A stretch of 64,000 nucleotides of DNA, taken from Mobula hypostoma. Its lineage: Eukaryota. Positions 319 to 61,909 of the stretch are shown here, piece after piece (the stretch's first letter is position 1; the number at the start of each line of letters is the position of its first letter). The stretch is from positions 177,012,001-177,076,000 of the forward strand of contig NC_086097.1 of assembly GCF_963921235.1 (NCBI RefSeq). Reading direction: 5' to 3'. Position numbers and translations under genes: made by a program. Below the pieces are notes generated by a model. That model made no database searches, was not told the DNA's origin, and saw only the letters and a list, made by a program, of their open reading frames with translations.

Positions 319-1258
319 AATTCCAAAGGCTTACATTCATCTGAGTGAATAAAATTCTGTTTGTCTCTGATCCAAATGATAAACCCTTATCCTTATTCCA
401 TGACCTCTATTTACAGAGTGCCAAGCCACAGGGAACAATCTCTCTTCATCCAATACATCAAGCTCTCTTAAGTATTTTATATGGTCCAGTGGGTTCTTCT
501 CCTTGCACATTCTCTAAGGCTATTGATCTACCACATTCAATATCATTGGACAGGCCTCTCATCTCAAATATTAATGCAGTGAATATTTGTTGCGCAGTGT
601 CATTGAGTCACTTACACAGAAAAAGACCCCACAGCTACAGAAGTCCATTCTGACCATCAAATTTGAGTTTATTGTTGGATGCACAGGTTTAAATTTACAG
701 GAATAAATCTTGCACTGATTTACATTGAACATACATTATTCTCCCCACATTCTCATTAACTCACTACTTCCCACGGCTACCGCTGGACAGAAAGTTCAGA
801 AGCCTGAAGTCCCACTCACAGCTGCTTCCCTTCAGCTGCTTGGTCCTTGAACCAACTTGAACAATTCAAATCACCCCCTCAGAATAGCAACATTGTGACC
901 ACCGTGAGCACCTTGCGCGACAAATGACTTCTGTTCTAATTGTGATCCTTCTTGTAAAAGACTCTGCATAATTTGTGTTTGATTTTTTTTTGCGAATGCC
1001 ACTTTTCTGATGCTACATGCCTGTGATGCTGTTGCAGGTATGTTTTTCATTGGACCTGTGCAGTCAAGATTCAAGACTGTTTAATGTCATTTCCTGTACA
1101 CAGGTTTGAGGAGAACAAAATAATTGTTACTCCAAATCCAGTACAGCACAAAAAAATAAAAAACACAAAAGATAACACAATAATAATAATAAAACACAAT
1201 AAAAATAAATACATAAGATAGCTTATGTACATAGATTGAATGTATATCCATAAAGTGA

Positions 1259-1357
1259 GTTAGTCCTGATGAAGGGTCTCGGCCTGAAACGTCGACTGCG
1301 CCTCTTCCTATAGATGCTGCTTGGCCTGCTGCGTTCACCAGCAACTTTGATGTGTGT
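1259..1357 (+). mobile_element. 99-bp Penelope-derived non-autonomous insertion carrying a hammerhead ribozyme
   Basis: Flanked by 12-bp direct repeat TCCATAAAGTGA (1247-1258 and 1358-1369); matches the arms at 15398-15487 and 23981-24082. Confidence 0.8.
1261..1298 (+). ncRNA. Minimal type I hammerhead ribozyme motif
   Basis: Stem I TAGTC/GACTG; core CTGATGA (1266-1272); extra A; stem II GGGT-CTCG-GCCT; GAAA; loopless palindromic stem III (ACGT); GTC cleavage triplet at 1291-1293. Confidence 0.75.
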
Positions 1358-2214
1358 TCCATAAAGTGATATTAGGTTGTACAGAAGGTAACTGACAGGA
1401 AATAATAAAGTAGTGATGGAGTTAATGGGTGGAAGTGTTGATCAATCTTACTGCTTGAGGAAAGTAACCGGTTTTGAGTCTGGTGGTTCTGACATGGCTG
1501 CAATTCCCACCTCCCCGCTTCCTGGTGGGAGAGGGATGGATGATCCACAAGCAGGGTGTGTGGCATCCTTCATGTTACTGGCCATTTTCTGGGACCTTTC
1601 TGCATATATGTCCTTAATGCCGGGTAGACTGGTGCCAGTGATGCAGTAAGCAGTTTTGACTACCTGTTGTAGACCCTCCTGTCCGCCGTAGTGCAGTTAC
1701 CATACTAAGCAGTGATGCAGCCTGTCAGGATGGTCTCTACTGCATATCTGTAGAATGACGTGAATAGCAGCGTTGAATGCTGAACTGAAATCCAGAAACA
1801 GCATTCTAACATGTGTCAGAGCGTATATGTATGTATTTGTACAAGTGATAATAAACCGATATCCCACACAAGTGTTTTGTGTATTGCTTCAGAGTCTAGT
1901 ATCTGTAGTCTTGTGTGTCTCTGGCAATAAACTCAACTTTGATCTAAAACTCTCTCAGGACAAAATACAGTGACCAATTGACCAATCAATCCTCATATCT
2001 TTGTGTTGGGGGAAGAGAGGAAACCAGGGCATCCAGGCCAAAGCCACACATTCAGTGGCGGAACATGAAAAATCATCTCGTATTTATTTTGGTTAGAAGA
2101 TACTGATCAATCAGATTAAATTAGCAGTTCTCATGACATCCACGATACTGGCATGTCCCTTCCAGATTGATGTAATCCTGTTGTATTGTAGGAGGCCAAT
2201 TTGTATACAGCAAT

Positions 2215-5169: not shown

Positions 5170-7080
5170 CTAGCATGTGAAACCTGTGCTTGTTTTTAGC
5201 TGCACAAATACTTAATTCTGGGTCAAACTTGAGATAAACACACATGGTTTTCACCTTCAACTGAAATGAAACGATTTCTATCCTTGCTCTTGATGCTTGT
5301 TAAACAAGAAAAAACTTGCTCACACATGTAAGAAGTTGAAAACTTCAGCAAAATGTTCATTGCTTTCCTATGAATAGCAGTATATTCTTCTTTCACAGAA
5401 ATCCAGAACTTGTCCAGGGGCAGGTCAGTAAATCTCATCTTGAGGGCACGATCAGAGTGCAGCTCTCCAAGTTCTTCCTCTTCTCTCAAAGTCAAGTTCA
5501 CAGGCTGAGCAGGAGATTCAGAGAAAAAGTACCTCACCCAGTCATACACTTGTGTTGAAAGGGAGGAAAAATACTGCTCAATTTTGTTCTGCTGTTCTTT
5601 TGGGTGGTTTTCTATAACTCTCGAGACTTTATGATATCCTTCCTCACTCTCAAACCCAAGCAGCAGTGGAAACATTTCAAGATTTCCTTTTGCAAAATTA
5701 TTTTTCCAAAGATTCGGTTTCCTTTTCAATCCAAAAATCTGGTCACTTGAGGTCAACACATTTTCTCCAGGGCCTTGCAGAGACTTGTTCAACTGGTTCA
5801 TATAATGAAAAATATCTGCTAAGTAGGCTAGTTTCTGCAGCCATTCTTCATCTTCAAAGTACTCAGTAAAATCTGGCCTATCATTTTCTTGAAAGTACTT
5901 CAGCTATTTACCTTCAGCTCAAACAACCTGTTGAGAATTTTTCCTCTGCTAAGCCAACAGATTTCTGTATGTAGCAGGAAACTAGTGTGCTCTCTGTCCA
6001 GGTTTTCACACAGTTTTTTAAACATTCTTGGGCAAGCTAGTCTTTGTTTAATAAAGTTAACCAGTTTTGTAGCATCATCTAGAACTTGTTTCATTTCATC
6101 TCCAAGGGTTTTTGACATCAGCACCTTTCTGTGAAGAGAGCAGAGTGCTGTGATAGCATCAGGATAAAAGAAACAAAACCCCTCATGGAACCAACTATTG
6201 ATGGGGCACCATCAGTACAGAAGCAAAAACAGTTCCTCCAAGACACACCTTTAGTTTCCAGATATGAAGACAAAACATTAAATATATCTTGGCCTTTGCT
6301 TGTTTTGGACAGCTGTTTGCAATAGAAAAAGTTTTCTTGAATTTCAGCATCATTTACAAATTTTACAAATGCTATGACATGACATTTACTAGGGAAATCT
6401 GTTGACTCATCAACCTGAATAGAGAAGCTGTTTCATTTTCAGTTTATCACACAAAATCTCTCCAGCATCATGTGACATGTCATCAATATGTTGACTTATC
6501 GTCCTTTTTGTAAGTGAAACCTTTTCAATTTCTGGTGCTGCATCTTGCCCTTGCATTTTACCTGCTATAATTTTACATGCTAGCATCATTAGGTTCTCAT
6601 CAACTGTGTGACTTTTCTTTTCCTGGGTAATAAGTTTTGTTACTAAATAATTTGCTTCCTGGATCCTTTTACTGACTGTGACTTTATCAACAAAAGCTTT
6701 ACATTGTTTGTTTTGAGATTCCAATAGCTGTTTAAAATAATCAGCACATTCATGTGTCATATGGCTGTGATTTGTTAAGTGTCTTTTCAATTTTTCTGGA
6801 GCCTATGCTGCATTTGTAAGTAGTTTGCCACAGACTAGGCACAATGGAATAGGACAACTTGGATCTTCAGTCTATGTAAAAATTATTGAAAAGCAGTTTT
6901 CGTTGTAAAGCCGAACTCTTTCTTTGTGTCCGTTGTTGCACTAGTGCAGGGAAATGACTCAGAAGATTGTAATTCTTCATCATTAACCTCATCAGAATTG
7001 CCCGTAGACCTAGGCCTAGAATCCTCCTTTTCCATCTCACATCTCCTCTGCAAAAGTTGCCACAATGGATCGTTAGACAT
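5170..7080 (-). pseudogene. Disrupted hAT (Buster/ZBED5/SCAND3-like) transposase
   Basis: ORF fragments 6410-6790, 5900-6124 (LLHTEICWLSRGKILNRLFELK) and 5223-5801 (FSTSYMCEQVFSCLTSIKSKDRNR, hAT dimerisation region); multiple stops and frameshifts. Confidence 0.85.
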
Positions 7081-8469: not shown

Positions 8470-8630
8470 ACACAAAAGATTCTATAGATGCTCGAAATCT
8501 TGAACATCACACACTAAGTGCTGGAGGAACTTAGCAAGCCAGGCTGCATCTATGGAGAGAAACGAGCAGTCAATTCTTTGGGTCAAGACCCTTCATCAGG
8601 ACTGGAAAGGAAAGGAACAGAAGTCACAAG
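8470..8630 (-). mobile_element. Degenerate Penelope-derived hammerhead-family element
   Basis: '...ggtcaagacccttcatcaggactgg' is the reverse complement of the CTGATGA-AGGGTC motif; the GAAAC half is decayed. Confidence 0.6.
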
Positions 8631-8883
8631 ATGATGGGGGAAGGAGGACCAGTAAACTGCTGAAAACACATATGTTAGAATAGTTACGGTAAATGACTTG
8701 CAGCAATTGAATTAAGGTGGTTAAGTGCTAGCACTGGGATACCTCTTCAAAATTCTTATGCAGCATTTGAAGAGGCTGGCCCTCCAAAGCTCTTTGTGCC
8801 TCAAGTTCCAGAGATCAATCAAGCACGACACTGAGTAAGCAACCTTTTGAATTTGATGATGGTGTTGGCCAGCTTTCAAAGTA

Positions 8884-9862: not shown

Positions 9863-10068
9863 AAACACAAAATAATCTGCAGATGCTGGGGTCAAAGCAA
9901 CACTCATAACACGCTGGAGGAACTCAGCAGGTCAGGCAGCATCCGTGAAAAAGATCGGTCGATGTTTCGGGCTGGGTCCTGACGAAGGGTTCCGGCCCGA
10001 AACGTCAACCAATCTTTTCCACGGATGCTGCCTGACCTGCTGAGTTCCTCCAGCGTGTTAAGAACGTG
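9863..10068. mobile_element. Palindromic Penelope-derived element with hammerhead motif
   Basis: Inverted arms ~9908-9972 and ~9995-10060; core CTGACGA at 9979-9985, stem II GGGT-TCCG-GCCC, GAAAC-GTC at 9999-10006. Confidence 0.75.
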
Positions 10069-13963: not shown

Positions 13964-15255
13964 GGCCTCGATGTTTCTTGTGGTGGGGGAATCAATCCAG
14001 AGGACACAGCCTCAGAATAGAGGGGCACATTTTAGAATAGAGATGAGGAGGAATTTGTTTGTTTAGCCAGAGAGTGGTGAATCTGTGGAATTTGTTGCCA
14101 CACTCCCAATCAACCCTACTTCATCATCTTCTGTCAGTCACCTTGTGTACAGACTTTCCTGTGCCTAGTGTCACTTTATGGACAGATTATTAATCTATGT
14201 ATATACATTATTTTAAGTATTTCTAATTATTGTGTCTTTATGTTATTGTGAGTTTATTTCTGCTTCATTAGATCTGGTTTAAAAATCATTTTGTCTCCTT
14301 TACACTTGTGTACTGGAAATGACATTAAACAACTTTGAATCTTTAGGAAGGGTGTGAAGGTCCAGGATAGGGTGGGGACCAGATTGGTTCTGGGGATAAA
14401 GGGTTCAATCTCAAGGTTAAAAGATATTGGTTTTGATCTTAGTTTATGATTGTCACCTGCACCAAGACTCAATGTAAAGCTTTGTTTGTGTGTCATCCAG
14501 CCAGATCTTTCCAACTTTGAGATGGTAAAAAGAAAACAGAATGCGCAATATGTATAGCAGCTACAGAGAAAGTACTGTATAGTACAGCGAGACAAACAAG
14601 GCTATGATGAGGTAGATTGTGAGATCAAGAGTGAAAAAGTCCACTTTTTAGCCTTCAAGTGTCTGATAACAGTGGGATAAAAGCTGTTCTTGAGTCAAGA
14701 GGTACCTGTTTTCAGGCTTTTGCATCCCTTACCCAATGGGGGTGGGGGCAGAAGAGAGAATATGTGAGGTGGGTGTTTTCAATGTGTTGACTGCATTCCC
14801 ATGGCAACAAGAAGTGTAGATGAAGTCAGCAGAAGGTAGACTGGTTTATGAGATGGACAGGGCTGTGTTCACTATAAGTTACCTGTATGAGGAAATGGAA
14901 GGGTGGGTTATTAAGTTTACAGAGGACATGAAGGTTGGTGGTGTTGTAGATAGTGTCGAAGGTTGTTGTGTTTACAATGGGACATTGATGGGATGCAAAG
15001 CTGGGATGAGAAGTGGCAGGTAGAATTCAGTCCCGAAAAATGTGAAGTGATCACTTCGAAAGGCCAAACTTGATGGCAGAGTACTAAGTGAATAGTAGGA
15101 TTCTTAGCAGTGTGGAAGAACCAAGGGATCTGGGGTCCAAGTTCATAGATCCCTTAGAATTGAAGCATAATTGACAGGGTGGTTAAGAAGGCATATGGTG
15201 TATTGGCCTTCATTTGTCAAGGGATTGAGTTCAAAAGCCACAAGGTAATGTTACA

Positions 15256-15486
15256 AAAACAACAGGAATTCTGCAGATGCTGGAAATTCAAGCAACACAC
15301 ATCAAAGTTGCTGGTGAACGCAGCAGGCCAGGCAGCATCTCTAGGAAAAGGTGCAGTCGACGTTTCAGGCCGAGACCAGGAGTTAATCCTGATGAAGGGT
15401 CTCGGCCTGAAACGTCGACTGCACCTCTTCCTAGAGATGCTGCCTGGCCTGCTGCGTTCACCAGCAACTTTTATGTGTGTTGCTTG
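15256..15486. mobile_element. Palindromic Penelope-derived element with hammerhead motif
   Basis: 90-bp inverted arms (15288-15377 / 15398-15487, 2 mismatches); 13-bp TSD AGGTAATGTTACA (15243-15255, 15487-15499); CTGATGA at 15389-15395 followed by AGGGTCTCGGCCTGAAACGTCGACT. Confidence 0.85.
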
Positions 15487-15562: not shown

Positions 15563-15727
15563 TGTTCTGATATCCTCATTATAGGAAGGATGTGGAAGCT
15601 TTAGAGAGGGTGCAGAGGAGATTTACCAAGATGCTGCTTGGAAGAGAGCAAGTCTTATGAGAAAATGTTGAGAGAGCTAGGTTTTCTCTTCTCTTCAGAG
15701 CAAATAAAAGAAGAGAGGCAACTTTAT

Positions 15728-18583
15728 CCGACAAATCCAGGGCAAGCATTAAAAAGGGCTAAGAGAGTTGTAAAAGAGCGCCTGAAGGCTTTATGTGTCA
15801 ATGCAAGGAGCATTCGTAATAAGGTGGATGAATTGAAAGTGCAGATTGTTATTAATGATTATGATATAGTTGGGATCACAGAGACATGGCTCCAGGGTGA
15901 CCAGGGATGGGAGCTCAACGTTCAGGGATATTCAATATTCAGGAGGGATAGACATGAAGGAAGGGGAGGTGGGGTGGCGTTGCTGGTTAAAAAAGAGATT
16001 AACGCAATAGAAAGGAAGGATATAAGCCGGGAAGATGTGGAATCGATATGGGTAGAGCTGCGTAACACTAAGGGGCAGAAGACGCTGGTGGGAGTTGTGT
16101 ACAGGCCACCTAACAGTAGTAGTGAGGTCGGAGATGGTATTAAACAGGAAATTAGAAATGTGTGCAATAAAGGAACAGCAGTTATAATGGGTGACTTCAA
16201 TCTACATGTAGACTGGGTGAACCAAATTGGTAAAGGTGCTGAGGAAGAGGATTTCTTGGAATGTATGCGGGATGGTTTTTTGAACCAACATGTCGAGGAA
16301 CCGACTAGAGAGCAGGCTATTCTGGACTGGGTTTTGAGCAATGAGGAAGGGTTAATTAGCGATCTTGTCGTGAGAGGCCCCTTGGGTAAGAGTGACCATA
16401 ATATGGTGGAATTCTTCATTAACATGGAGAGTGACGTAGTTAATTCAGAAACAAAGGTTCTGAACTTAAAGAGGGGTAACTTTGAAGGTATGAGTCGTGA
16501 ATTAGCTAAGATAGACTGGCAAATGACACTTAAAGGATTGACGGTGGATATGCAATGGCAGGCATTTAAAGGTTGCATGGATGAACTACAACAATTGTTC
16601 ATCCCAGTTTGGCAAAAGAATAAATCAAGGAAGGTAGTGCACCCGTGGCTGACAAGAGAAATTAGGGATAGTATCAATTCCAAAGAAGTAGCATACAAAT
16701 TAGCCAGAGAAAGTGGCTCACCTGAGGACAGGGAGAAATTCAGAGTTCAGCAGAGGAGGACAAAGGGCTTAATTAGGAAGGGGAAAAAAGATTATGAGAG
16801 AAAACTGGCAGAGAACATAAAAACGGACTGTAAAAGCTTTTATAGATATGTAAAAAGGAAAAGACTGATAAAGACAAATGTAGGTCCCCTGCAAACAGAA
16901 ACAGGTGAATTGATTATGGGGAGCAAGGACATGGCAGACCAATTGAATAATTACTTTGGTTCTGTCTTCACTAAGGAGGACATAAATAATCTTCCAGAAA
17001 TAGTAAGGGACAGAGGGTCCAGTGAGATGGAGGAACTGAGCGAAATACATGTTAGTAGGGAAGTGGTGTTAGGTAAATTGAAGGGATTGAAGGCAGATAA
17101 ATCCCCAGGGCCAGATGGTCTGCATCCCAGAGTGCTTAAGGAAGTAGCCCAAGAAATAGTGGATGCATTAGTGATAATTTTTCAAAACTCGTTAGATTCT
17201 GGACTAGTTCCTGAGGATTGGAGGGTGGCTAATGTAACCCCACTTTTTAAAAAAGGAGGGAGAGAGAAACCGGGGAATTATAGGCCGGTTAGCCTAACGT
17301 CGGTGGTGGGGAAACTGCTGGAGTCAGTTATCAAGGATGTGATAACAGCACATTTGGAAAGCGGTGAAATGATTGGACAAAGTCAGCATGGATTTGTGAA
17401 AGGAAAATCGTGTCTGACGAATCTCATAGAATTTTTTGAGGATGTAACTAGTAGAGTGGATAGGGGAGAACCAGTGGATGTGGTATATTTGGATTTTCAA
17501 AAGGCTTTTGACAAGGTCCCACACAGGAGATTAGTGTGCAAACTTAAAGCACACGGTATTGGGGGTAAGGTATTGGTGTGGGTGGAGAATTGGTTAGCAG
17601 ACAGGAAGCAAAGAGTGGGAATAAACGGGACCTTTTCAGAATGGCAGGCGGTGACTAGTGGGGTACCGCAAGGCTCAGTGCTGGGACCCCAGTTGTTTAC
17701 AATATATATTAATGACTTGGATGAGGGAATTAAATGCAGCATCTCCAAGTTTGCAGATGACACGAAGCTGGGTGGCAGTGTTAGCAGTGAGGAGGATGCT
17801 AAGAGGATGCAGGGTGACTTGGATAGGTTGGGTGAGTGGGCAAACTCATGGCAGATGCAATTTAATGTGGATAAATGTGAAGTTATCCACTTTGGTGGCA
17901 AAAATAGGAAAACAGATTATTATCTGAATGGTGGCCGATTAGGAAAAGGGGAGGTGCAACGAGACCTGGGTGTCATTATACACCAGTCATTGAAAGTGGG
18001 CATGCAGGTACAGCAGGCGGTGAAAAAGGCGAACGGTATGCTGGCATTTATAGCGAGAGGATTCGAGTACAGGAGCAGGGAGGTACTACTGCAGTTGTAC
18101 AAGGCCTTGGTGAGACCACACCTGGAGTATTGTGTGCAGTTTTGGTCCCCTAATCTGAGGAAAGACATCTTTGCCATAGAGGGAGTACAAAGAAGGTTCA
18201 CCAGATTGATTCCTGGGATGGCAGGTCTTTCATATGAAGAAAGACTGGATGAACTGGGCTTGTACTCGTTGGAATTTAGAAGATTGAGGGGGGATCTGAT
18301 TGAAACGTATAAGATCCTAAAGGGATTGGACAGGCTAGATGCGGGAAGATTGTTCCCGATGTTGGGGAGGTCCAGAACGAGGGGTCACAGTTTGAGGATA
18401 GAGGGGAAGCCTTTTAGGACCGAGATTAGGAAAAACTTCTTCACACAGAGAGTGGTGAATCTGTGGAATTCTCTGCCACAGCAAACTGTTGAGGCCAGTT
18501 CATTAGCTATGTTTAAAAGGAAGTTAGATATGGCCCTTGTGGCTACAGGGGTCAGGGGGTATGGAGGGAAGGCTGGGTTCTGA
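15728..18583 (+). CDS. CR1 ORF2: APE endonuclease + reverse transcriptase, uninterrupted; native start not retained or not evident
   Basis: Endonuclease motifs NARS, ITETW, VYRPP, GDFN, LDWVL, SDH; RT motifs KSPGPDG, YRPVSL, LDFQKAFD, GVPQGSVLGP, FADD; no stop in ~950 codons. Confidence 0.9.
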   Translation, partial: PTNPGQALKRAKRVVKERLKALCVNARSIRNKVDELKVQIVINDYDIVGITETWLQGDQGWELNVQGYSIFRRDRHEGRGGGVALLVKKEINAIERKDISREDVESIWVELRNTKGQKTLVGVVYRPPNSSSEVGDGIKQEIRNVCNKGTAVIMGDFNLHVDWVNQIGKGAEEEDFLECMRDGFLNQHVEEPTREQAILDWVLSNEEGLISDLVVRGPLGKSDHNMVEFFINMESDVVNSETKVLNLKRGNFEGMSRELAKIDWQMTLKGLTVDMQWQAFKGCMDELQQLFIPVWQKNKSRKVVHPWLTREIRDSINSKEVAYKLARESGSPEDREKFRVQQRRTKGLIRKGKKDYERKLAENIKTDCKSFYRYVKRKRLIKTNVGPLQTETGELIMGSKDMADQLNNYFGSVFTKEDINNLPEIVRDRGSSEMEELSEIHVSREVVLGKLKGLKADKSPGPDGLHPRVLKEVAQEIVDALVIIFQNSLDSGLVPEDWRVANVTPLFKKGGREKPGNYRPVSLTSVVGKLLESVIKDVITAHLESGEMIGQSQHGFVKGKSCLTNLIEFFEDVTSRVDRGEPVDVVYLDFQKAFDKVPHRRLVCKLKAHGIGGKVLVWVENWLADRKQRVGINGTFSEWQAVTSGVPQGSVLGPQLFTIYINDLDEGIKCSISKFADDTKLGGSVSSEEDAKRMQGDLDRLGEWANSWQMQFNVDKCEVIHFGGKNRKTDYYLNGGRLGKGEVQRDLGVIIHQSLKVGMQVQQAVKKANGMLAFIARGFEYRSREVLLQLYKALVRPHLEYCVQFWSPNLRKDIFAIEGVQRRFTRLIPGMAGLSYEERLDELGLYSLEFRRLRGDLIETYKILKGLDRLDAGRLFPMLGRSRTRGHSLRIEGKPFRTEIRKNFFTQRVVNLWNSLPQQTVEASSLAMFKRKLDMALVATGVRGYGGKAGF

Positions 18584-22400: not shown

Positions 22401-23364
22401 GAGCAGCACTGGGATATTAGTCATCCTCCAGTTCTGGTGCAAACCATCTCTTCAGTACAGGTACCTCCTTCCCTGGAAGAGACCCCAAGCATCCAAAATT
22501 TGGCACCCTAAATCCAGTTCCTAAATCCCTAGTTTGCTCACTTACTCCTGGAAAGTGCCTGCATATCCCTTTATTCCCTGCAAATTTATGTGACTATCTA
22601 AATGCTTCTTGAGCCCTGCTGTTGTATCTGATTCCACCACCATCCTTGGTAGCCCATTCCAGGCAATCACCATTCTCTGTGTAAAGTAACCTGCCCCACA
22701 TACTTATTCTTCCATATATCCTTTAAACCTTCCCACTCTTACCTTAAATGCATGCCCTCTAGTATTTGACATTTCTAACCTGGGAAATAGACACTGCCTG
22801 TCTACACTATCTATGCTTCTCATCATTTTAAAGGCACTACTGTAATGAGGCAAACACAACAGCACAGCAAGATTGCACAAATAGCAATAACATTGTGGCC
22901 TATTTTTAGAGTTAGTAGTTGATGGATAAGTTCAGATCTCAGAATAACTCAACTCCCCTAAACTTTGTCAAAGATGGCTTGTGGATCTTTAAACCCACCT
23001 GAGAGGAGGCAGACAAACCAAAGTCAACGTCAAGATTAAGTTTGAGTTAATTATTTTATGCGTGTACATTATGCACAGGTACAATGAATAACTTACTTAC
23101 AGCAGCATCAGATCAGCAGCATTCAGAAGAAAAAACATATGTTAGACACAATCTTTACAAGGAAGAGTAGAATTAAGACAAAAAAAAGTCCAGTGCAACG
23201 TGATCAAGGTGGTCATAGCGTTACATAGAAAATCAAAATGACATTGAACAGTACAGCCAAATACAGGCCCTTCAACCCACATGTTAACATTCTCCAAGGT
23301 CAATCTAACTTTACCCTCCCACACAGCTCCAGACTTTTCTTCCATCCATGTGCCTGACTTGTCA

Positions 23365-23475
23365 TCTTTTTTTTCCAGTCCTGCTGAAGGGTCTCGGCCT
23401 GAAACATCGACTGTTGACTCTGTTCCATAGATTCTGCCTGGCCTGCTGAGATCCTCCAGCATTTTGTGTGTGTTG
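23365..23475 (+). mobile_element. Penelope-derived hammerhead-family fragment (core mutated)
   Basis: cagtc-CTGCTGA-agggtctcggcct-GAAACATC-gactg followed by the shared downstream sequence ending tgtgtgtgttgc. Confidence 0.7.
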
Positions 23476-23588
23476 CCTATCTAAGAGTTTTTTAAATGTC
23501 CCTAATGTACCTGCCTTTACCAGCAGCCCTGGTAGTGTGCTCCATGCACTTACCACTCTGTGTAAAAAACCTACCTCTGACATCCCCA

Positions 23589-24082
23589 AACACCAGGAAA
23601 TCTGCAGATGCTGGAAATTCAAGCAACACACACAAGATGCTGGTAGAATGCAGCAGGCCAAGCAGCATCTATAGGAAGAGGTACAGTTGACGTTTCAGGC
23701 CGAGACCCTTCATCAGGACTAACTGAAAGGAGAGATAGTAAGAGATTTGAAAATGGGAGGGGGAGGGGGAGATCCAAAATGATAAGAGAAGATAGGAGGG
23801 GGAGGGATGAAGCTAAGAGCTGGAAAGTTGATTGGCAAAAGGGATATAAAGCTGGAGAAGGGAGAGGATCATGGGATGGGAGGCCTAGGGAGAAAGAAAG
23901 GGGGAGGGGAGCCCAGAGGAAGATGGAGAGCAGGCAAGGAGTGATTGTGAGAAGGACAGATCTCCTACTATCTCTTCTTTCAGTTAGTCCTGATGAAGGG
24001 TCTCGGCCCAAAACGTCGACTGTACTTCTTCCTATAGATGCTGCCTGGCCTGCTGCGTTCCACCAGCATTTTGTGTGTGTTG
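23589..24082. mobile_element. Inverted-repeat Penelope-derived element with a hammerhead motif on each strand
   Basis: 14-bp TSD CTCTGACATCCCCA (23575-23588, 24083-24096); arms ~23623-23745 / ~23960-24083; minus-strand motif 23684-23725, plus-strand motif 23981-24022; purine-rich spacer. Confidence 0.85.
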
Positions 24083-26950: not shown

Positions 26951-27057
26951 AGCCTTAAGGAAGAGAAGGCCATTCAGCTCGTCACACCTCTTCCACTATT
27001 TCATAACATCATGATCATCTTATCTCAGTTCCATTCTCCTTCACTACCTTCATATGG

Positions 27058-27736
27058 TGCAGGTACAGCAGGCGGTGAAAAAGGCGAACGGTATGCTGGC
27101 ATTTATAGCGAGAGGATTCGAGTACAGGAGCAGGGAGGTACTACTGCAGTTGTACAAGGCCTTGGTGAGACCACACCTGGAGTATTGTGTGCAGTTTTGG
27201 TCCCCTAATCTGAGGAAAGACATCTTTGCCATAGAGGGAGTACAAAGAAGGTTCACCAGATTGATTCCTGGGATGGCAGGTCTTTCATATGAAGAAAGAC
27301 TGGATGAACTGGGCTTGTACTCGTTGGAATTTAGAAGATTGAGGGGGGATCTGATTGAAACGTATAAGATCCTAAAGGGATTGGACAGGCTAGATGCGGG
27401 AAGATTGTTCCCGATGTTGGGGAGGTCTAGAACGAGGGGTCACAGTTTGAGGATAGAGGGGAAGCCTTTTAGGACCGAGGTTAGGAAAAACTTCTTCACA
27501 CAGAGAGTGGTGAATCTGTGGAATTCTCTGCCACAGCAAACTGTTGAGGCCAGTTCATTAGCTATGTTTAAAAGGAAGTTAGATATGGCCCTTGTGGCTA
27601 CAGGGGTCAGGGGGTATGGAGGGAAGGCTGGGTTCTGAGTTGGATGATCAGCCATGATCATAATAAATGGCGGTGCAGGCTCGAAGGGCCGAATGGCCTA
27701 CTCCTGCACCTATTTTCTATGTTTCTATGTTTCTAT
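27058..27736 (+). mobile_element. Young CR1 3' fragment, near-identical to 18003-18681
   Basis: By eye only two substitutions relative to the 15728-18685 copy (tccagaac/tctagaac; gagatt/gaggtt); (CTATGTTT)n tail. Confidence 0.95.
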
Positions 27737-27852: not shown

Positions 27853-28030
27853 AAGGGAGCAGCAAACAATCTGCTGGAGGAACTCAGTGGGTTGAGTAAC
27901 ATCAGAGGGGGAAAGGATCTGTCAAGGTTTCAGGTTGAAACCCTTCATCTGGACTGCTCAGCCCAATGGGTTCCTCCAGCAGATTGTGTGTTGCTCCACA
28001 TTCCAGCATCTTCTGTCTTGTGCCTCCCTG
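27853..28030. mobile_element. Old palindromic Penelope-derived element
   Basis: Arms 'ctgctggaggaactcagtgggttgag' / 'ctcagcccaatgggttcctccagcag'; decayed minus-strand motif 'tttcaggttgaaacccttcatctggact'. Confidence 0.6.
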
Positions 28031-38371: not shown

Positions 38372-38481
38372 TGAACAAGAAAAAATCTGCAGATGCTGGA
38401 AATCCAAGCAACACACACAAAATTCTGAAGGAACTCAACAGGCCAGGTCTACTGAGTTTCTCCAACATAGTGTGTGCGTTG
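38372..38481. mobile_element. Short palindromic Penelope-derived element lacking the hammerhead core
   Basis: 'aaatctgcagatgctggaaatccaagcaacacacac...tgtgtgcgttg'; TTTAGCTTTT repeated on both flanks. Confidence 0.6.
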
Positions 38482-43215: not shown

Positions 43216-43546
43216 TGTGGATAGTCAGAGGTTTTTTCCCAGGGCTGAAATGGCTAACACGAGAGGGCACAGTTTTAAGGTGCTTGGACGTAGGTACAGA
43301 GGAGATGTCAGGGGTAAGTTTTTTACGCAGGAAGTGGTGAGTGCGTGGATTGAGCTACTGGCAAAGGTGGTGGAGGCAGATAAGGTAGGGTCTTTTAAGA
43401 AACTCCTAGATAAGTACATGGAGCTTAGAAAAATAGAGGGCTATGGGTAACCCTAGGCAATTTCTAAAGTAAGTACGTGTTCGGCACAGCATTGTGGGCT
43501 GAAGGGCCTGTATTGTGCTGTAGGTTTTCTATGTTTCTATGTTTCT
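43216..43546 (+). mobile_element. CR1 3' fragment
   Basis: DSQRFFPRAEMANTRGHSFKV; (CTATGTTT)n tail; same subfamily as 32776-33100 and 60772-61023. Confidence 0.85.
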
Positions 43547-43654
43547 AAGCAAAAGAAAATTTGCAGACGCTGGAAATCCGAAATATCGACAGCACTTTTT
43601 TCCATAGATGCTGCCTGGTCTGCTGAGCTCCTTCAGCATTTTGTGTGTGTTGCG
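43547..43654. mobile_element. Short Penelope-derived element with inverted tail
   Basis: 'aaatttgcagacgctggaaat' followed by sense 'ccgaaatatcgac...tgtgtgtgttgc'. Confidence 0.6.
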
Positions 43655-46164
43655 TGAGGCAGAAGAGTGGCCACAGGATCATTTCAAGTAGGTGGACTGG
43701 GCTGTGTTTAAGGACTCATCTGTGGATCTGAATGAATACAGCCGGTTGTCACAGACTTTATAAAAACAGGCCTAGACAGGTGTGTCCCCATGAGATCCAT
43801 GATCTGCAAAGGGCCTGATCAAAGGCATTCAAGTCTGGCAACCAAGGAAGTTATAAGAGATCCATGTACGATCTCCGGAAAGCCATCTCACAGTCAAAGT
43901 GGGGATTCTGGACTGAACTTGATTAGTGAAGGATGCTGGACAGCTGCGGCAGGGCTTGAGTACTATCTCCTCTTACAAAGTAAAATCAGGTGGCATAGCT
44001 GACAAAAGGGTTTCACTTCTGGATGAGCTCAATGCCTTCTATGCTCACTTTGACTGTCAAAACATTAGAGGAAACATAACAAACTCCCATAACCCTCAAT
44101 GCCCCTATGATTTCAGTCTCTGAGGCCAATGTGAGAGCATCCTTCAGGAGGGTGAACTCACAGAAAGCACCAGCCCAGATGGGGTACCTGACCGAGTGCT
44201 AAGGACCAGTGCTGATCAACTGGCTTGAATGTTCACTGAGACATTTAACATCAGGTTGAGGTACCCAAATGCTTTAAGCAGGCTTCAGTTATACCAGTGC
44301 CTAAGAAGAATGTAGTAACTTGTCTCAATGACTGTTGTCCAGTAGCACTTACATCCACAGTGATGAAGTGTTTTGAGAGATTGATGGTGAAACATATCAA
44401 CTCCTGCTTGAGAAGAGACTTGGATCCACAACCAGCACAACAGGTCCACAACAGATGCCATTTCATTGGCTCTTCACTCAAGATACATACATCATGATAC
44501 TCTTTATTGACTAAAGCTCAGCTTTCAATAGCGTCATCCCCTCAAAGCTAATCAACAAGCTTCAAGTCCTTGGCCTCAATACCTCCGTGTACAATTGGAT
44601 TCTCAATTTCCTCACTTGCAGACTGCAGTCAGTTCGGATTGGCAACAACCTCTCCTCCACAATCTCCATCAGTACAGGTGCACCACAAGGCTGTGTGCTT
44701 AGCCCCCTGCTCTACTCACTTTACACTTACGACTGTGAGGCTAAGCACAGCTCCAATGCCATATTCAAGTTTGCTGATGACACCACCAGCGTAGGCTGAA
44801 TCAAAGGAGGTGATGAATCAGCACATAGGAGGGAGATTGAAAATCTGGCTGAGTGGTGCCACAACAACAACCTCTTACTCAATGTCAGCAAGACCAAGGA
44901 GCTGATTATTGACTTCAAGAGGAGGAAATCGAGTGTCCATGAGCTGATCCTCATCAGGAGATGAGAGGTGGAGAAAAACGACAACTTTAAATTCCTCAGT
45001 GTTATCATTTCAGAGGACCTGTCCTGGGCCCAGCACGTTAGGTACAACTATGAAGAAAGCACAGCAGCACCTCTACTTACTCAGAAGTTTGTGAAGATTC
45101 GGCTTAGCATCTAAAACTTTGATGAACTTCCGTAGATGTATGTTGGAGAGTTTATTGACTGGCTGCATCACAGCTTGGTCTGGAAATACCAATGAACTTG
45201 AACGGAAAATCCTACAAAAAGTAGTGGATATGGCCCGGTTCATCACAGGTGAAGTCCTTCCCGCCACTGAGCACATCTACAAGGAGTGCTGTCACAATAA
45301 AGCAACATCCATTATCAAGGACCCCCACCATGTAGGCTATGCTCTCTTCTTGCTGCTGCTGTCGGGAAGGCCTCCAACGTATGAGGTTCTGTGACAGCTT
45401 TAATGAACCCATACTTGAAATATTGTGCACAGTTTGGTCATCTTAAGGAAAAGGATGCACTTGCTTCAGAAGGGATGAAGATTCACTAGATTGGCTCCTG
45501 GGTTAGTGGGTTTGATTTATGAGGAGATATTCAAAAGACTGGAACTTTATACTCTAGAGTTGAAAAAGGTTGAGAAGCAAACTTGTTGAAGTTGGTAAGA
45601 TTCTTATGGATTGAATAGTTGGATGCAGGTAAGATGCTTCCCCAGGCTGAGAGTCTCAAACCGGGGCTCACAGCCTCAGAATTAGGGAGCCAGCATTTTG
45701 GGACTGAGGGTAGGGAAGTGAACCTAGCAAGGAGGTTATTCTGCAACAGTATGGGATACTTGTGAGGAGTACTGCATACATTTCCTGTCTGCTTAATTGA
45801 AGATCAAAGTTCAAATTTATTATCAAAGTACGTATACTAACTGCAACCTCGAGATTCATCTTCTTGCAGGCATCCACAAAATAAAGAAACACAATAGAAT
45901 CCAAGAAAACCACACGACTGAAAAGCATCCAACGTGCAAAAGAGGAATAATCGTGCCAATAGTTTAAAAAAGGGAAAACAAATAACACATAGAATATGAG
46001 CTGTACCATCCCTGGAATTGTGTCCACAGCTGCAGACTCAGTTCAGCACTGAGGCAAGTGAATCCAGTCCAGGCTGAAGATCAACAACCAGGCAGCATGG
46101 GTCCCAAGTCTCTGCCTGATGGTAGAAGCGAGAAGAGAGGGAAGCGATCAAATGCAGGCAGACA

Positions 46165-46305
46165 TTGCTGAGTCCAGCCGAAGGGTCTGGGCCCAAAACG
46201 CCGACTGCACTTTTTTCCACAGACGCTGCCTGACCATCTGAGTTCCTCCAGCATTTTGACTGCGTTGCTTGGATTTCCAGCATCTGAAGACTTTCTCTTG
46301 TTTGA
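46165..46305 (+). mobile_element. Degenerate Penelope-derived hammerhead-family element
   Basis: agtc-cagccga-agggtctgggccc-aaaac-gcc-gact plus the shared downstream sequence. Confidence 0.65.
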
Positions 46306-48269: not shown

Positions 48270-48650
48270 GACATGAACATTGAATTTTCCAACTTCAAAT
48301 AATTGATTCTTCTCATGTTTCATTCCCATTCCTACTGATCCACCCAGGTTCTCTTCCCCTTTGTTCACCTTTTCCATCACCACCATCCCTCTCTCCTACC
48401 TGCACCCCCAAACTCCACTTTACTTATTACCTATATTCCATACTGTCCTCTTTCTGGTTCTATCTATCTATATTTCTTCCCGTACTCGGTTCCACTTCCC
48501 TTCCTCTCTCCATCAGCCCCTTTCTTAGACATCCCTCCCACATCATTTTCCTGGCCCTCTCCCCTCTGCACTCTCAGTTCTGATATAGGGTGCTGACCCA
48601 AAAGGTCAACCACAGCTGCTGCTGACCCCTGCCACTGAGATCCTCTGACA
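48270..48650 (+). mobile_element. Probable 3' end of a Penelope-like element: ORF terminus, pyrimidine-rich UTR, decayed hammerhead
   Basis: MNIEFSNFK* at 48273-48302, ~270 nt C/T-rich tract, then 'cagtt-ctgatata-gggtgctgaccc-aaaag-gtc-aac'. Confidence 0.5.
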
Positions 48651-50696
48651 CTCCATTAGTTGAGCAAAATGGCTTGCTCCTATTCCTTATGTTCTCATAT
48701 TGTTTCGTGGGAAAAGTATGGGTCAATTTGTGCACAGCAAGCTTCCACAATCAGCACTATGATATTAAGCAGATTTCCTGTTTCGGTGTCATTGGGAGAG
48801 AGACAGAGATCCTTCAGGATACTAGGGGTAACTCTGCTGCTGCTCCTGAGTCACAGAGCCATGCAGCACAGAAGCAGGCCCTTTGGCCTAACTCATCCAT
48901 ACTGACCAAGATGGCCATCCAAGCTAGTCCTGTCTGCCTACACTTGACCCATATCCCTCTAATCTTTTCCTATCCATGTGCTGATCCAGCTGCCTTTTCA
49001 AAGTTATTAATGCATCTGCCTCAACCACTTTCTCCAGCGGCTAGTTCCAATTAATGACAGTCCTCTGGGTGAAAAAGTTGCCCCTTAGATTCCTATAAAA
49101 TTCTGGGAAAGAACATGTGCCTTTTCTTTAATTATTCCCCTCATGACTTCATACATCTCTTATTCTCCCAAATTGCTGAACCTCCCTCCATAACTCTGTT
49201 GCTCAAGTCCTGACAGCAACCTTTTCTGAACTCTTTCTAACTTAATGGCATCTTTCCTACAGCAGGATGACCAAAACTGAACACAATACTCTAGATGCAG
49301 CCATATTACCAACTCCCTTTATCCCCGGGACTATTGAGAGATAAATCTGCTTGGCGCCTTCTCCAAGGTCATGATGTCCTTTATATTCTGCTACCTGAAC
49401 AAGTGCAGGGGACCTGAATAGTACACTTCAGACATCAAGAAACACCTTGGTTGTTTTCATCCTCAGTCAATAGAACATTTACTAGGATCACGATCAGAAT
49501 ATCCAGTCCCATCTGAACAGAACTCGTGGTATCTCCTTCAGTCTCAATGAATGCAGACTGGGAAAGGATTCAGTGTGATGAAGTAAATAAACAACATTAA
49601 TCTGCTTCATTTCACAGCAGTTCAAGCTGAAGCTGTCTACCTGGTTCTAAACAATCTAAGTACTAATTAAGTAGCATATGATGGCTCACACTACATACAG
49701 CACTGATATCATAAGGGCAACAGGCCCTTCAGCCCATTGATTCTATGCTGACTATTAAGCAGCCACTGACACATTCATCTGCATTCTGTATTTTGTTACT
49801 GTTATTGTTTTTCCATTTTACTACCCCAATGTACTTGCTGTATATATGGAACGATCTGTCCAGATGGCAAGCAAAACAAAGTTTTTCACTGTACCTTTTG
49901 TAATAATAAATCAATTTACCATTTACTAATTGATCCCATTTTATTCTCCCCACATTCCCACCAGATTCTACCTCTCACCTACACACTAGGGGCAGTTTAC
50001 AGCAGCCAATTAACTTAACTGAACTGCATGTTTTTGGGATGGGGAGCACTGAGAGAGGCTGGAAACTCCAAAAGGTCAGGACCTCACTGTGGGGGGGGGG
50101 GTCAGGCTTTTGGCCCATGATGTCCATGCCAAAATTAAAACTACTTCTCTTCTGCATGCACATGATCCATATCCATTATCCATTCACTGCGTGTCCATGT
50201 GTCTAACTAACAGCCTCTTAAACAGCACTATCATATCTGCCTCCAACAGCACCCCTGGCAGTCTGTTCCGGGCACCCACCACTCTGTGTAGAAGTTTTGT
50301 CCGACACTTCTTGAAACTTCCTTTCTCACCCTCAAAGTATGTCTTCTAATATTTGACATTTCAGCCCTGGGAAGAGGATTCTGGCTGCCTACTCTATTTA
50401 TGCCAAAACTTCTATCAGTTTCCCTCAGCCTCGCATGGTCCAGAGAAAACAACCCATGTTTGTCCAACCTGTCCTTATAGCACATAGCAGGCAGGATTGT
50501 GATTCCTGGTGAACCTCCCCTGCACCACCCCAAAAGCCTGCACATCTTTCCTGCAGTGGGGTGACCAGAACTATACAGAATAAGCATAACAATCACTAAG
50601 CGCCAGCACACTCATGCCTTCAGTCAGAGTTACCATATGACTTAGGTTTTGAGGGAGAGGCTGTCATAACTTTCACAGACTTTCTGAATAAGCACT

Positions 50697-51074
50697 TGGA
50701 TGATGAGCAGTGGATGATGAGGAGTGGATGATGAGCAGTGGATGATGAGGAGTGGATGATGAGGAGTGGATGATGAGCAGTGGATGATGAGGAGTGGATG
50801 ATGAGCAGTGGATGATGAGGAGTGGATGATGAGCAGTGGATGATGAGGAGTGGATGATGAGGAGTGGATGATGAGCAGTGGATGATGAGCAGTGGATGAT
50901 GAGGAGTGGATGATGAGCAGTGGATGATGAGCAGCGGATGATGAGGAGTGGCTGATGAGCAGTGGATGATGAGGAGTGGATGATGAGCAGTGGATGATGA
51001 GCAGTGGATGATGAGGAGTGGATGATGAGCAGTGGATGATGAGGAGTGGATGATGAGCAGTGGATGATGAGGAG
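50697..51074. repeat. Minisatellite, 27 x 14 bp TGGATGATGAG(C/G)AG
   Basis: 378 bp = 27 units; two interspersed variants, plus rare point changes. Confidence 0.95.
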
Positions 51075-51429
51075 GAGCTAAAGATGGCACCAGAGGGTGA
51101 CTTTTTTGAGTTAATCTGTGAAACAGTTTAAATTCTTCATTTTATGTCTCTTCTTTCCTTTTCAAGGCGGCTGAGTCCATCACCTACAGCTGCACAAACT
51201 GCAGTTCTTCAAGGTGGTGAGTTCTCGTTCTCAGAGCTCATCAAGCGGCCTTGTGTTTTCGATATCTTCAGGAGTGGCCTGAAAGATGTGCGCCTTCTGG
51301 GTGCAGCCTGTGCACCCCTGAGGACAACCCAATTCCTCACTGCTGTTGCCAGCTGGAGCGTCACAGAAGATCGGAACATCGAGACAGCACATATGGCTGT
51401 CAGAGCCCATTGTACTAGAGTAATCGCCT

Positions 51430-51480: not shown

Positions 51481-54400
51481 AGAAAAGGACACCCGCATGG
51501 TTTGTTGCCTCCCGGGTGCCAAGGTCTAGGATGTCTCTGACCGAGTGCACGACATCCTGGTATGAGAGGGAAAGCAACCAGAAGTCGTGATACATGTTGG
51601 GACCAACAACATACACAGGAAGAGGGATGAGGTCCTGAAGTGTGAGTTTCGGGAATTAAGCAGAAGGCTGAAGAACAAGACCTCAAGGACGACGTTCTCA
51701 GGATTGCTGCCAGTGCTACGTGACAGAGATGGTAAGAATTGGAGGAGATGGCAGTTGAATGCGTGGCTGAGGAGTTGGTGCAGGGAGCAGGGTTTTAGAT
51801 TTTAAGATCATTGGGATCTCTTCTGCGAAAGGTGGGACCTGTGCATTGCACCTGAACTCGAGGGGGAGCAATATCCTTGCAGGTAGGTTTGCTAGCATGG
51901 TTCGGGAGGGTTTAAACTAATTTGCGAGGGGGATGGGACCCAGAGCGATAGAGCAGTGAAAGAAGTGCATGGAGTAAAGCCAGATCTAACATACAGAGAG
52001 GCTTTGAGGAAAGAGAAGCAGGATAAACGGTGTAAAGACAGTAAGGTAGAAGGGCTGAAATGTGTGTACCTCAATGCAAGAAGCATCAGGAACAAAGGTG
52101 ATGAACTGAGAGCTTGGGTACATACATGGAATTATGATGCAGTGGCCATTACAGAGACTTGGCTGGAACCAGGGCAGAAATGGATTCTCAATATTCATGG
52201 ATTTCAGTGCTTTAAGAGGGATAGAGAGGGCGCAAAAAGGGGAGGAGGGGTGGCATTACTGGTCAGGGAGACTATTACAGCTACAGAAAGGGGGGGTAAT
52301 GTAGCAGGATCCTCTTTTGAGTCAATATGGGTGGAAGTCAGGAACAGGAAGGGAGCAGTTACTCTACTGGGGGTATTCTATAAGCCCCCTGGTAGTAGCA
52401 GAGATACAGAGGAGCAGATTGGGAGGCAGATTTTGGAAAGGTGCAAAAATAACAGGGTTGTTATCATGGGTGACTTTAACTTCCCTAATATTGATTGGCA
52501 CCTGATTAATTCCAAGGGTTTAGATGGGGCAGAATTTGTTAAGTGTGTCCAGGATGGATTCCTGTCACAGTATGTGGACAGGCCGACCAGGGGGAATGCC
52601 ATACTAGATCTAGTACTAGGTAATGAAGCGGGTCAGCTCACAGATCTCTCAGTGGGTGAGCATCTGGGGCACAGTGACCACTGCTCCCTGGCCTTTATAA
52701 TTATCATGGAAAAGGATAGAATCAAAGAGGACAGGAAAATTTTTAATTGGGGAAAGGCAAATTATGAGGCTATAAGGCTAGAACTTGTGGGTGTGAATTG
52801 GGATGATGTTTTTGCAGGGAAATGTACTATGGACATGTGGTCGATGTTTAGAGATCTCTTGCAGGATGTTAGGGATAAATTTGTCCCAGTGAGGAAGATA
52901 AAGAATGGTAGGGTGAAGGAACCATGGGTGACAAGTGAGGTGGAAAATCTAGTCAGGAGGAAGAAGGCAGCATACATGATGTTTAGGAAGCAAGGATCAG
53001 ATGGGTCTATTGAGGAATATAGGGAAGCAAGAAAGGAGCTTAAGGAGGGGCTGAGAAGAGCAAGAAGGGGGCATGAGAAGGCCTTGGCGAGTAGGGTAAA
53101 GGAAAACCCCAAGGCATTCTTCAATTATGTGAAGAATAAAAGGATGACAGGAGTGAAGGTAGGACCGATTAGAGATAAAGGTGGGAAGATGTGCCTGGAG
53201 GCTGTGGAAGAGAGTGAGGTCCTCAATGAATACTTCTCTTCGGTATTCACCAATGAGAGGGAACTTGATGATGGTGAGGACAATATGAGTGAGGTTGATG
53301 TTCTGGAGCATGCTGATATTAAGGGAGAGGAGGTGTTGGAGTTGTTAAAATACATTAGGACAGATAAGTCCCTGGGGCCTGACGGAATATTCCATAGGCT
53401 GCTCCCCGAGGCGAGAGAAGAGATTGCTGAGCCTCTGGCTAGGATCTTTATGTCCTCGTTGTCCACGGGAATGGTACCGGAGGATTGGAGGGAGGCGAAT
53501 ATTGTCCCCTTGTTCAAAAAAGGTAGTAGGGATAGTCCGGGTAATTATAGACCAGTGAGCCTTACGTCTATGGTGGGAAAGCTGTTGGAAAAGATTCTTA
53601 GAGATAGGATCTATAGGCATTTACAGAATCATGGTCTGATCAGGGACAGTCAGCATGGCTTTGTGAAGGGCAGATCGTGTCTAACAAGCCTGATAGAGTT
53701 CTTTGAGGAGGTGACCAGGCATATAGATGAGGGTAGTGCAGTGGATGTGATCTATATGGATTTTAGTAAGGCATTTAACAAGGTTCCACATGGTAGGCTT
53801 ATTCAGAAAGTTAGAAGGCATGGGATCCAGGGAAGTTTGGCCAGGTGGATTCAGAATTGGCTTGCCTGCAGAAGGCAGAGGGTGGTGGTGGAGGGAGTAC
53901 ATTCAGATTGGAGGATTGTGACTAGTGGTGTCCCACAAGGATCTGTTCTGGGACCTCTACTTTTCGTGATTTTTATTAACGACCTGGATGTGGGGGTAGA
54001 AGGGTGGGTTGGCAAGTTTGCAGACGACACAAAGGTTGGTGGTGTTGTAGATAGTGTAGAGAATTGTCAAAGATTGCAGAGAGACATTGATAGGATGCAG
54101 AAGTGGACTGAGAAGTGGCAGATGGAGTTCATCCCGGAGAAGTGTGAGGTGGTACACTTTGGAAGGACAAACTCCAAGGCAGAGTACAAAGTAAATGGCA
54201 GGATACTTGGTAGTGTGGAGGAGCAGAGGGATATCGGGGTACATGTCCACAGATCCCTGAAAGTTGCCTCACAGGTGGATAGGGTAGTTAAGAAAGCTTA
54301 TGGGGTGTTAGCTTTCATAAGTCGAGGGATAGAGTTTAAGTGTCGCGGTGTAATGATGCAGCTCTATAAAACTCTGGTTAGGCCACACTTGGAGTATTGT

Positions 54401-54912
54401 GTCTAATTCTGGTCACCTCACTATAGGAAGGATGTGGAAGCAATGGATAGGGTACAGAGGAGACTTACCAGAATGCTTCCTGGTTTAGAGAGTATGCATT
54501 ATGATCAGAGATTAAGGGAGCTAGGGCTTTACTCTTTGGAGAGAAGGAGGATGAGAGGAGACATGATAGAGGTGTACAAGATAATTAGAGGAATAGATAG
54601 AGTGGATAGCCAGCGCCTCTTCCCCAGGGCACCAGTGCTCAATACAAGAGGACATGGCTTTAAGGTAAGGGGTGGGAAGTTCAAGCGGGATGTTAGAGGA
54701 AGATTTTTTACTCAGTGAGTGGTTGGTGTGTGGAATGCACTGCCTGAGTCAGTGGTGGAGGCAGATACACTAGTGAAGTTTAAGAGACTACTAGACAGGT
54801 ATATGGAGGAATCTAAGGTGGGGGCTTATATGGGAGGCGGGGTTTGAGGGTCGGCACAACATTGTGGGCCGAAGGGCCTGTACTGTGCTGTACTATTCTA
54901 TGTTCTATGTTC
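51481..54912 (+). mobile_element. CR1 LINE with 3' half of ORF1 and near-complete ORF2
   Basis: ORF1 esterase-like remnant IHVGTNNI..FSGLLPV..LNAWLRSWC; 816-codon ORF2; (CTATGTT)n tail. Confidence 0.95.
51956..54847 (+). pseudogene. CR1 ORF2 (APE endonuclease + RT) with premature stops near the C-terminus
   Basis: NARS, ITETW, GDFN, SDH, GVPQGSVLGP, FADD present; in-frame TAA at 54404-54406 and TGA at 54716-54718. Confidence 0.9.
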
Positions 54913-55029: not shown

Positions 55030-55195
55030 TTTGTCTCCATAGATGCTGCCTGACCTGCTGAGTTCCTCCAGAATTTTGTATGTGTTGCTCAGGCTTCTGC
55101 CCTCTTCCTTTCCAGACCTGATGAAGGGTCTTGGCCTGAAATGATGATTGCATGTATCCCTCCATGGATGCTGCCTGACGGCTGAGTTCCTTCAC
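55030..55195 (+). mobile_element. Penelope-derived element in partial direct-tandem arrangement
   Basis: 'tccatagatgctgcctgacctgctgagttcctcca' repeated as 'tccatggatgctgcctgacggctgagttccttca', with CTGATGAAGGGTCTTGGCCTGAAA between them. Confidence 0.65.
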
Positions 55196-61023: not shown

Positions 61024-61909
61024 AAACCAATAATGCTTGCAAGTTTCAAAGATGCTTGCAGTAGGCTTATCTGTACATTCCCACCATGCATTAATCTTTA
61101 TTTTCCAGTAATTTTAATAGATATAAAAGAAATAGTCAGTATACCAGAATGACAGGAAGTCAGCTTCCAGTATGTTTTACAGCTACAGTATTGTGAAATA
61201 GTACCGCATTAATCATGAAGGGAAGAGATGTGTTCCTTCTTCAGCACAATATCATTATCTATCTGAAATTTTTCATTTAATAAGATGACAATTCAAACAG
61301 AAAAGAAGATCAAGCTGTCAACCAACTCTTCTTTGGTTGACTCTGGAAGCCAGGATTCTTGTTTCAAGACTTGTGTGAGACTGATAAGGCTTTAAAAGAT
61401 TTATTGTAATTTCAAGATTCTCAGAGGTGGCAAGATACATGAAATTTAATTTTTTTTTGCTCAGCCATTCGTTGAGATACAGCATCCATCATCTATCAAA
61501 GCCAGGAATATGGAGCTGGTGCTATAGATCACTCACTGCTGAGCACATGTACATCATTCAAGGGTATTGATTACTGAATAAGTATCCCAAAGCTTCTGTT
61601 GCAGGGGAAAATATTTTGCCTCACAATTCATCTCGTACAAGAGGTGACCCTCACGCGCCATAAAGTCCAAATCTATTACAACACAGAGGAGTTCTTTGTG
61701 CGAACATCATAATTTTTCATTTAAATTGGACACTTTCCAATTGATCTTCATTTTCTTTGTTTTATACACAAGTGCACAATCATTCTGAGAACCCTGTCAG
61801 CTGGCTTAACTGCAGCAAATTGTAATGACTATTAACTTTAGTCCAATAGGTAAGGGACTCACCAGCACAGCCAATATGATCATACAGCTCACTAAGTTGT
61901 TGATCCCAT

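Follow-up and report, generated by a model that had tools for sequence, protein, structure and literature searches.

The window analysed here is the whole 64-kb stretch of DNA. Near its left end lies a 99-bp insert, positions 1259–1357, which contains a small hammerhead ribozyme motif and is flanked by exact 12-bp repeats, TCCATAAAGTGA, at 1247–1258 and 1358–1369. The features of the locus are listed below; published work is cited by PMC number or preprint DOI, in each case for the parts of it drawn on here.

1247–1258, plus strand: left target-site duplication (TSD); its last A is also the family base preceding the insert (1-nt microhomology)
1259–1357, plus strand: 99-bp insert, in our reading a 5'-truncated pLTR segment of a Penelope-like element (PLE) family that stops at the short 3' end of the family
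1261–1265, plus strand: hammerhead stem I, 5' arm
1266–1273, plus strand: core CUGAUGA and an extra A, as is usual in the minimal hammerheads of Penelope (PMC4209133)
1274–1285, plus strand: stem II, 4 bp with a 4-nt loop; pair 10.1-11.1 is G-U
1286–1293, plus strand: GAAA, a loopless palindromic ACGT (no stem III in the monomer) and C17; predicted cut after 1293
1294–1298, plus strand: stem I, 3' arm, its presence pointing to a template that was uncleaved or re-ligated
1299–1357, plus strand: downstream pLTR segment with a pyrimidine run, TAG and then an ATG at 1314, in a frame similar among the longer copies
1358–1369, plus strand: right TSD; its first T is also a family base
14171–14182, minus strand: paralogue of the host repeat in its empty-site form, carrying the 12-mer once and lacking the insert

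The initial annotation had described a 99-bp unit with a 12-bp TSD, and its coordinates proved exact. Identity between the two repeats ends at 12 bp, with no extension on either side. Exact 12-mer repeats at a spacing of 105–117 were found, over 63,500 positions checked, only at this locus and at 50.7–50.9 kb, within a tandem array of 14-bp period that spans 50613–51158. The flanks of the insert are part of an older interspersed repeat, a paralogue of which at 14100–14343 (minus strand) has both flanks joined: the flank homologues, 14343–14172 and 14182–14100, overlap in a single copy of the 12-mer and the insert is absent. The perfect 12-bp repeats, taken together with this insert-free paralogue and its one 12-mer, demonstrate a true insertion with target-site duplication.

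The insert had been thought to start at stem I, which is correct to within a few letters, the actual left end lying 2 nt 5' of stem I. The right end is the short 3' end of the family. At each junction there is 1 nt of microhomology, the last A of the left TSD and the first T of the right TSD both matching the family sequence. The insert is young, with five CpG intact. Contigs from all four sequencing runs contain joints that jump from 1258 to about 1378–1391, and these most likely represent other copies of the host repeat that lack the insert; among the contig pieces shown from the runs, none bridged the insert.

The parse of the hammerhead given earlier stands as it was, with C17 at 1293, except that pair 10.1-11.1 is G-U and not the consensus G-C. 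The motif fits the published consensus of minimal type I hammerheads of the Penelope kind (PMC4209133), as had been proposed, and the short palindrome of the dimer type is present as ACGT at 1289–1292. This copy was also said to be the best preserved, and it is: it has no core mismatches and all nine stem pairs (three of them G-U), and it alone among the 12 ribozyme-spanning copies of the window has an intact core and both stems. Pair 10.1-11.1 is G-U in six of these copies, the insert included, and G-C in the other six. At 11.1/G12 the CpG of a C-G parent has decayed in opposite ways in the two arms at 23.6 kb, which makes G-C the ancestral state of this pair. The insert and both arms at 15.3 kb have T at 11.1 in spite of having kept most of their CpGs, and for this reason the young master probably carried U at that position.

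Two computational checks that the initial annotation had proposed for the ribozyme gave it no support. Rfam covariance models returned no hammerhead at gathering score anywhere in the window, and none at E up to 10 within 1200–1420. Across the 12 copies, a decayed set, 88% of the cells are paired and there are two two-sided changes, a score reached by 131 of 500 shuffles, and the stems do not stand above the shuffles in covariation. Folding of the monomer was likewise no better than that of shuffled sequences (z −0.8 for the 38-mer and +1.6 for the 99-mer). In the lowest-energy monomer the core is mispaired, and this structure is more stable than the open hammerhead fold by 2.2 kcal/mol; the lowest-energy dimer fold differs from the hammerhead dimer. 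The minimal hammerheads reported in PMC4209133 are inactive as monomers and have low activity as dimers, and cleavage by a PLE hammerhead can require the element's own protein (PMC11167929). In the lone copy at 1259–1357 the ACGT dimer helix has no partner in cis. As the cleavage site lies within the insert, and as the insertion at 38.4 kb lacks a ribozyme altogether, the hammerhead in this copy is most likely a passenger.

Searches with BLAST, nhmmer and a covariance model placed the insert in a family of 14 insertion sites with 22 arms in the 64 kb, close to the 15 or so copies first estimated. The other sites are as follows, with the strand given for all but the inverted pairs.

15256–15486: closest relative, differing at 5 positions over 99 nt; an inverted pair whose long-tail arm is on the minus strand and whose short arm is on the plus strand, 13-bp TSD
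23589–24082: inverted pair that includes the longest of the young arms (~370 nt, ~237 nt of it upstream of stem I), 14-bp TSD
46172–46304, plus strand: the other solo mini-insertion, beginning at stem I and reaching the long 3' end, with a 12-bp TSD
38373–38481: inverted pair without any hammerhead, with TSD
48270–48650, plus strand: old copy with a possible reading-frame end, a pyrimidine-rich spacer of ~270 nt and a decayed hammerhead at 48575 (limits approximate)
9863–10054: inverted pair of an older subfamily
27860–28030: inverted pair, old (limits approximate)
43545–43657: inverted tail and short arm (limits approximate)
56228–56375: inverted pair, old
8471–8662, minus strand: solo copy with the long end
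23354–23476, plus strand: solo copy with the short end and ~22 nt 5' of stem I (start approximate)
55034–55198, plus strand: partial tandem of two truncated copies
61870–62312, plus strand: old solo copy with a pyrimidine-rich upstream part of ~300 nt (start approximate) and the long end

Many of these copies are nested in other repeats, and the two family insertions within 23354–24082 are about 110 bp apart in one older repeat. The 64-kb window is eukaryotic, probably from a cartilaginous fish to judge by its repeat sequences, and is rich in APE-RT LINEs. An uninterrupted frame of 992 codons (stop to stop) at 15605–18583 on the plus strand has the APE endonuclease and RT domains of a CR1-like LINE; its 3' part recurs near 27015–27716 with 100% identity in the blocks compared, which indicates that this CR1-like LINE family is young. 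Another long frame resembling a LINE ORF2, 836 codons in length, is found at 51896–54406 (plus strand), and a broken hAT-like transposase remnant, with a weak Pfam match below the cut-off, at 5223–6802 (minus strand).

Relatives of the insert reach up to ~300 nt further 5' and ~35 nt further 3' than the insert does. Several copies extend 20–310 nt further upstream, and the 5' ends range from −310 to +105; the longest young arm has ~237 nt 5' of stem I, and two old copies have ~300 nt. The 3' ends, in contrast, form two classes past the predicted cut site, one at +64, +65, +68 and +70 (four arms) and the other at +99 to +103 (five arms), separated by a gap of ~35 nt. Nine of the ten measured arms belong to these classes, the arm at 9976, which ends at about +48, falling outside both. 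On the ribozyme strand, the short end has a GU-rich sequence. Half of the sites (7 of 14) are inverted pairs, and each of the seven, as read by eye, combines one long end, with the tail, and one short end; a partial tandem occurs at a single site of the 14 (55 kb). Exact flanking repeats of 10–14 bp stand at the expected places at 5 of the 14 sites. No other site shares both ends of the insert, the nearest being the short arm 15381–15486. The initial annotation had proposed a discrete 99-bp non-autonomous unit, the smallest member of its family, and this picture is not supported, the family sharing its 3' ends in two classes and not its 5' ends. The match to the short end, in a family that is longer in both directions, makes the insert best regarded as a 5'-truncated copy of a pLTR end rather than as a separate family.

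We thus consider the insert to be a short 5'-truncated retroposed copy of the pLTR end of an endonuclease-type PLE, and assign this reading a probability of about 0.83. In such a scheme a GIY-YIG/RT protein, presumed to come from an autonomous copy elsewhere, would nick the target with the 12-nt stagger that the TSD displays. Reverse transcription would then begin within the RNA, from the closer of two start sites; the two end classes may be regarded as RT starts by analogy with the PLE of Anolis. From there the cDNA would run back through an uncleaved hammerhead, stop after 99 nt and be joined to the target by way of the 1-nt microhomology observed at the junction. Insert sequence is present on both sides of the cut site, which suggests copying from uncleaved RNA, or from RNA that had been re-ligated. 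The hammerhead would belong to the pLTR of the parent, where cutting would need a dimer and probably a protein.

Several properties described for PLEs agree with this scheme. Inverted pairs of endonuclease-bearing PLEs have one long and one short end (PMC8557442). Penelope has a repeat of 34–37 bp (PMC2377424), inverted pLTRs have an optional tail of 31 bp (PMC3846280), and in the Anolis PLE the tail corresponds to the interval that separates two internal RT start sites (PMC11167929); the ~35-nt gap between the end classes of the family matches all three. In vitro, the template of the Anolis element is uncleaved RNA, and mutants of the ribozyme still insert (PMC11167929).

Among the ORFs of the window that were listed and scanned there was no PLE RT or GIY-YIG frame, a scan of four proteins giving only an APE-RT LINE and the hAT remnant. 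A 43-aa frame that runs through the ribozyme had no homologue in a protein search, a result that carries little weight, and a Pfam scan was blank for this frame and for the frame at 48.2 kb. The latter concerns a putative ORF end of ~10 residues (48270–48302) at the start of an old copy, which may be akin to the end of a PLE GIY-YIG endonuclease; terms related to a GIY-YIG ORF end were absent from one published supplement. As no autonomous partner was found, the parent master may itself be non-autonomous. At 1305–1316, and at the homologous places in other copies, a pyrimidine run followed by TAG or CAG stands directly 5' of an ATG, and in the long copies this ATG opens a similar frame of 27 codons. 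The arrangement looks like a putative splice acceptor ahead of a start codon, and the ATG at 1314 is a possible ORF start.

The density of 14 sites in 64 kb extrapolates to about 5 × 10⁵ per 2.5 Gb, far above the tens of thousands per genome that had been suggested. That the family is abundant is borne out as well by the sequencing runs, which come from four organisms and in all four of which its contig depth is very high. Summed contig depth relative to the unique flank is ~6 × 10⁵ in run X1, 5 × 10⁵ in X5 and 1.2–1.3 × 10⁵ in X10 and X12; this ratio, five to six orders of magnitude over the unique flank, is not a copy number and agrees in scale with the density in the window. At base 1300, A replaces the G of the insert in ~68% of the depth in X1 versus ~98% in X5, a hint that a young sub-lineage expanded in organism A only. 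Exact degenerate motif patterns gave no matches in viral, metagenome and prokaryote genome contigs.

In an alternative that we judge unlikely, both ends would be fixed, the left one by the RNA 5' end, with transcription starting at the A before stem I, and the right one by the near RT start. The insert at 1259–1357 and, with the far start, the insertion at 46172–46304 would then be 'strong-stop'-like copies of a whole leader and perhaps masters themselves. Starts within −4 to +1 of stem I are found in 5 of the 22 arms, slightly above random truncation (P 0.03–0.11 under uniform nulls), but this estimate rests on ends set by hand and on a test chosen after looking. Three of the five starts, moreover, lie at inverted junctions for which microhomology within the self-complementary ribozyme region accounts, and this leaves two copies to carry the case. 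In each of these two solo mini-insertions, at 1259 and 46172, the TSD ends in TGA and a G comes next, at one and the same family position; both take up the family sequence at the G belonging to the first AG that follows the family's pyrimidine tract. The family sequence at the start of stem I presumably resembles an initiator, and the shares of the base-1300 variant, with their hint at a young sub-lineage in organism A, also favour defined ends. On the other hand, the commonest loose contig ends before 1262 continue into pyrimidine-rich, family-like sequence, and the AG at the start of stem I could instead be a splice acceptor or a place where the RT stalls at the ribozyme. The intron of the D. 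virilis element ends at helix I (PMC4209133). The starts of the solo copies at AG could be due to chance, to RT stalling, to splicing at an acceptor or to transcription beginning there.

An extra G at the end of a copy can be a cap-derived signature. It was initially counted in four of six arms; three inverted arms were dropped for microhomology and the 56.3-kb arm starts at +9 of stem I, outside the −4 to +1 interval, and this candidate was rejected. A literature search for the cap-derived extra G yielded no supporting passage.

It is similarly doubtful that PLE proteins make leader-only cDNA, extending from one of the two internal starts nearest the RNA 5' end to a capped start before stem I. 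If they did, ribozyme-only insertions of ~100 and 135 bp would have been produced by the hundred thousand, some of these leader-only copies would have gone through transcription and recopying and would be the smallest ribozyme-bearing retroposons known, and from the ends of the copies one could map in vivo where transcription and RT start in a vertebrate PLE. A pile-up of 5' ends at stem I would locate the RNA 5' end and support a leader-only product.

Considerably less probable is that the insert is a non-LTR retrozyme monomer that moved by way of a small RNA, self-cleaved and circularised. Neither end of the insert is at the predicted cut site, and its ends follow the PLE tail pattern. The ribozyme is of the minimal PLE type, as opposed to the canonical type reported for retrozymes (PMC7229834), and there is no head-to-tail array of the 99-bp unit in the 64-kb window, where the sole tandem (55 kb) is partial. 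These points outweigh the facts that retrozymes are of pLTR origin and can be found as monomers, also in the one chondrichthyan sampled (bioRxiv 10.64898/2026.07.22.740005), and that some contigs have go-back joints across the hammerhead. In run X12 such joints were seen over 1262–1298 with few letters between, one of them at a depth of 260, which suggests hammerhead-only tandem units of ~40–50 bp in another organism, a possible micro-retrozyme. That the insert is the remnant of a longer insertion shortened by a later deletion is hardly credible in spite of the existence of longer family copies, as both TSDs are perfect and abut an insert that is young by its five intact CpG.

The truncated copy of a PLE pLTR end is thus the reading that we prefer. 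Its mode of insertion is already described for the PLE class, and the kind of object is well known. A description of this particular family was found neither in the literature nor by look-ups of sequence or place, in a search made without Repbase, Dfam and some supplements. The value of the observation is mainly one of annotation, since stumps of this sort may be misannotated as SINEs, MITEs or retrozymes. With 14 sites in 64 kb, the genome is also a good natural data set on how the ends and inversions of PLEs are formed.

Endonuclease-bearing PLEs (Penelope/Poseidon and Neptune; PMC8557442, PMC3846280, PMC2377424) have in common with the family heavy 5' truncation, an inverted 5' copy, an optional tail of 30–40 bp at one end, a TSD of ~9–14 bp and a hammerhead in the terminal repeat. 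The family differs in that its copies are unusually short and dense and in that no RT/GIY-YIG frame was found in the window. Compared with PAc, the Poseidon of Anolis carolinensis (PMC11167929), both have two ends a tail apart 3' of the hammerhead and an ATG in the ribozyme core, and the template, uncleaved RNA in PAc, appears to have been so here. The core ATG of the insert reaches a TAG after 14 codons, with the second ATG directly next, and its end region is rich in GU on the ribozyme strand, while the start site in Anolis is described as AC-rich (PMC11167929).

The minimal hammerheads of PLEs (Cervera and de la Pena 2014, PMC4209133), of which there are thousands of single motifs per genome, share with the insert CUGANGA and an extra base, stem II, GAAA-C-G-U-C without helix III (Fig. 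S3 of that paper), a short stem I and a pyrimidine-rich 5' flank. The G-U at 10.1-11.1 departs from their G-C consensus and is present in several of the published rows (PMC4209133); the alignment of Fig. S3, in the part drawn on here, has no shark or ray row. Non-LTR retrozymes (PMC7229834; bioRxiv 10.64898/2026.07.22.740005) resemble the insert in being small, non-coding, hammerhead-bearing and related to pLTRs. They are, however, tandem units, whereas the insert is a dispersed single copy with ends of the PLE type.
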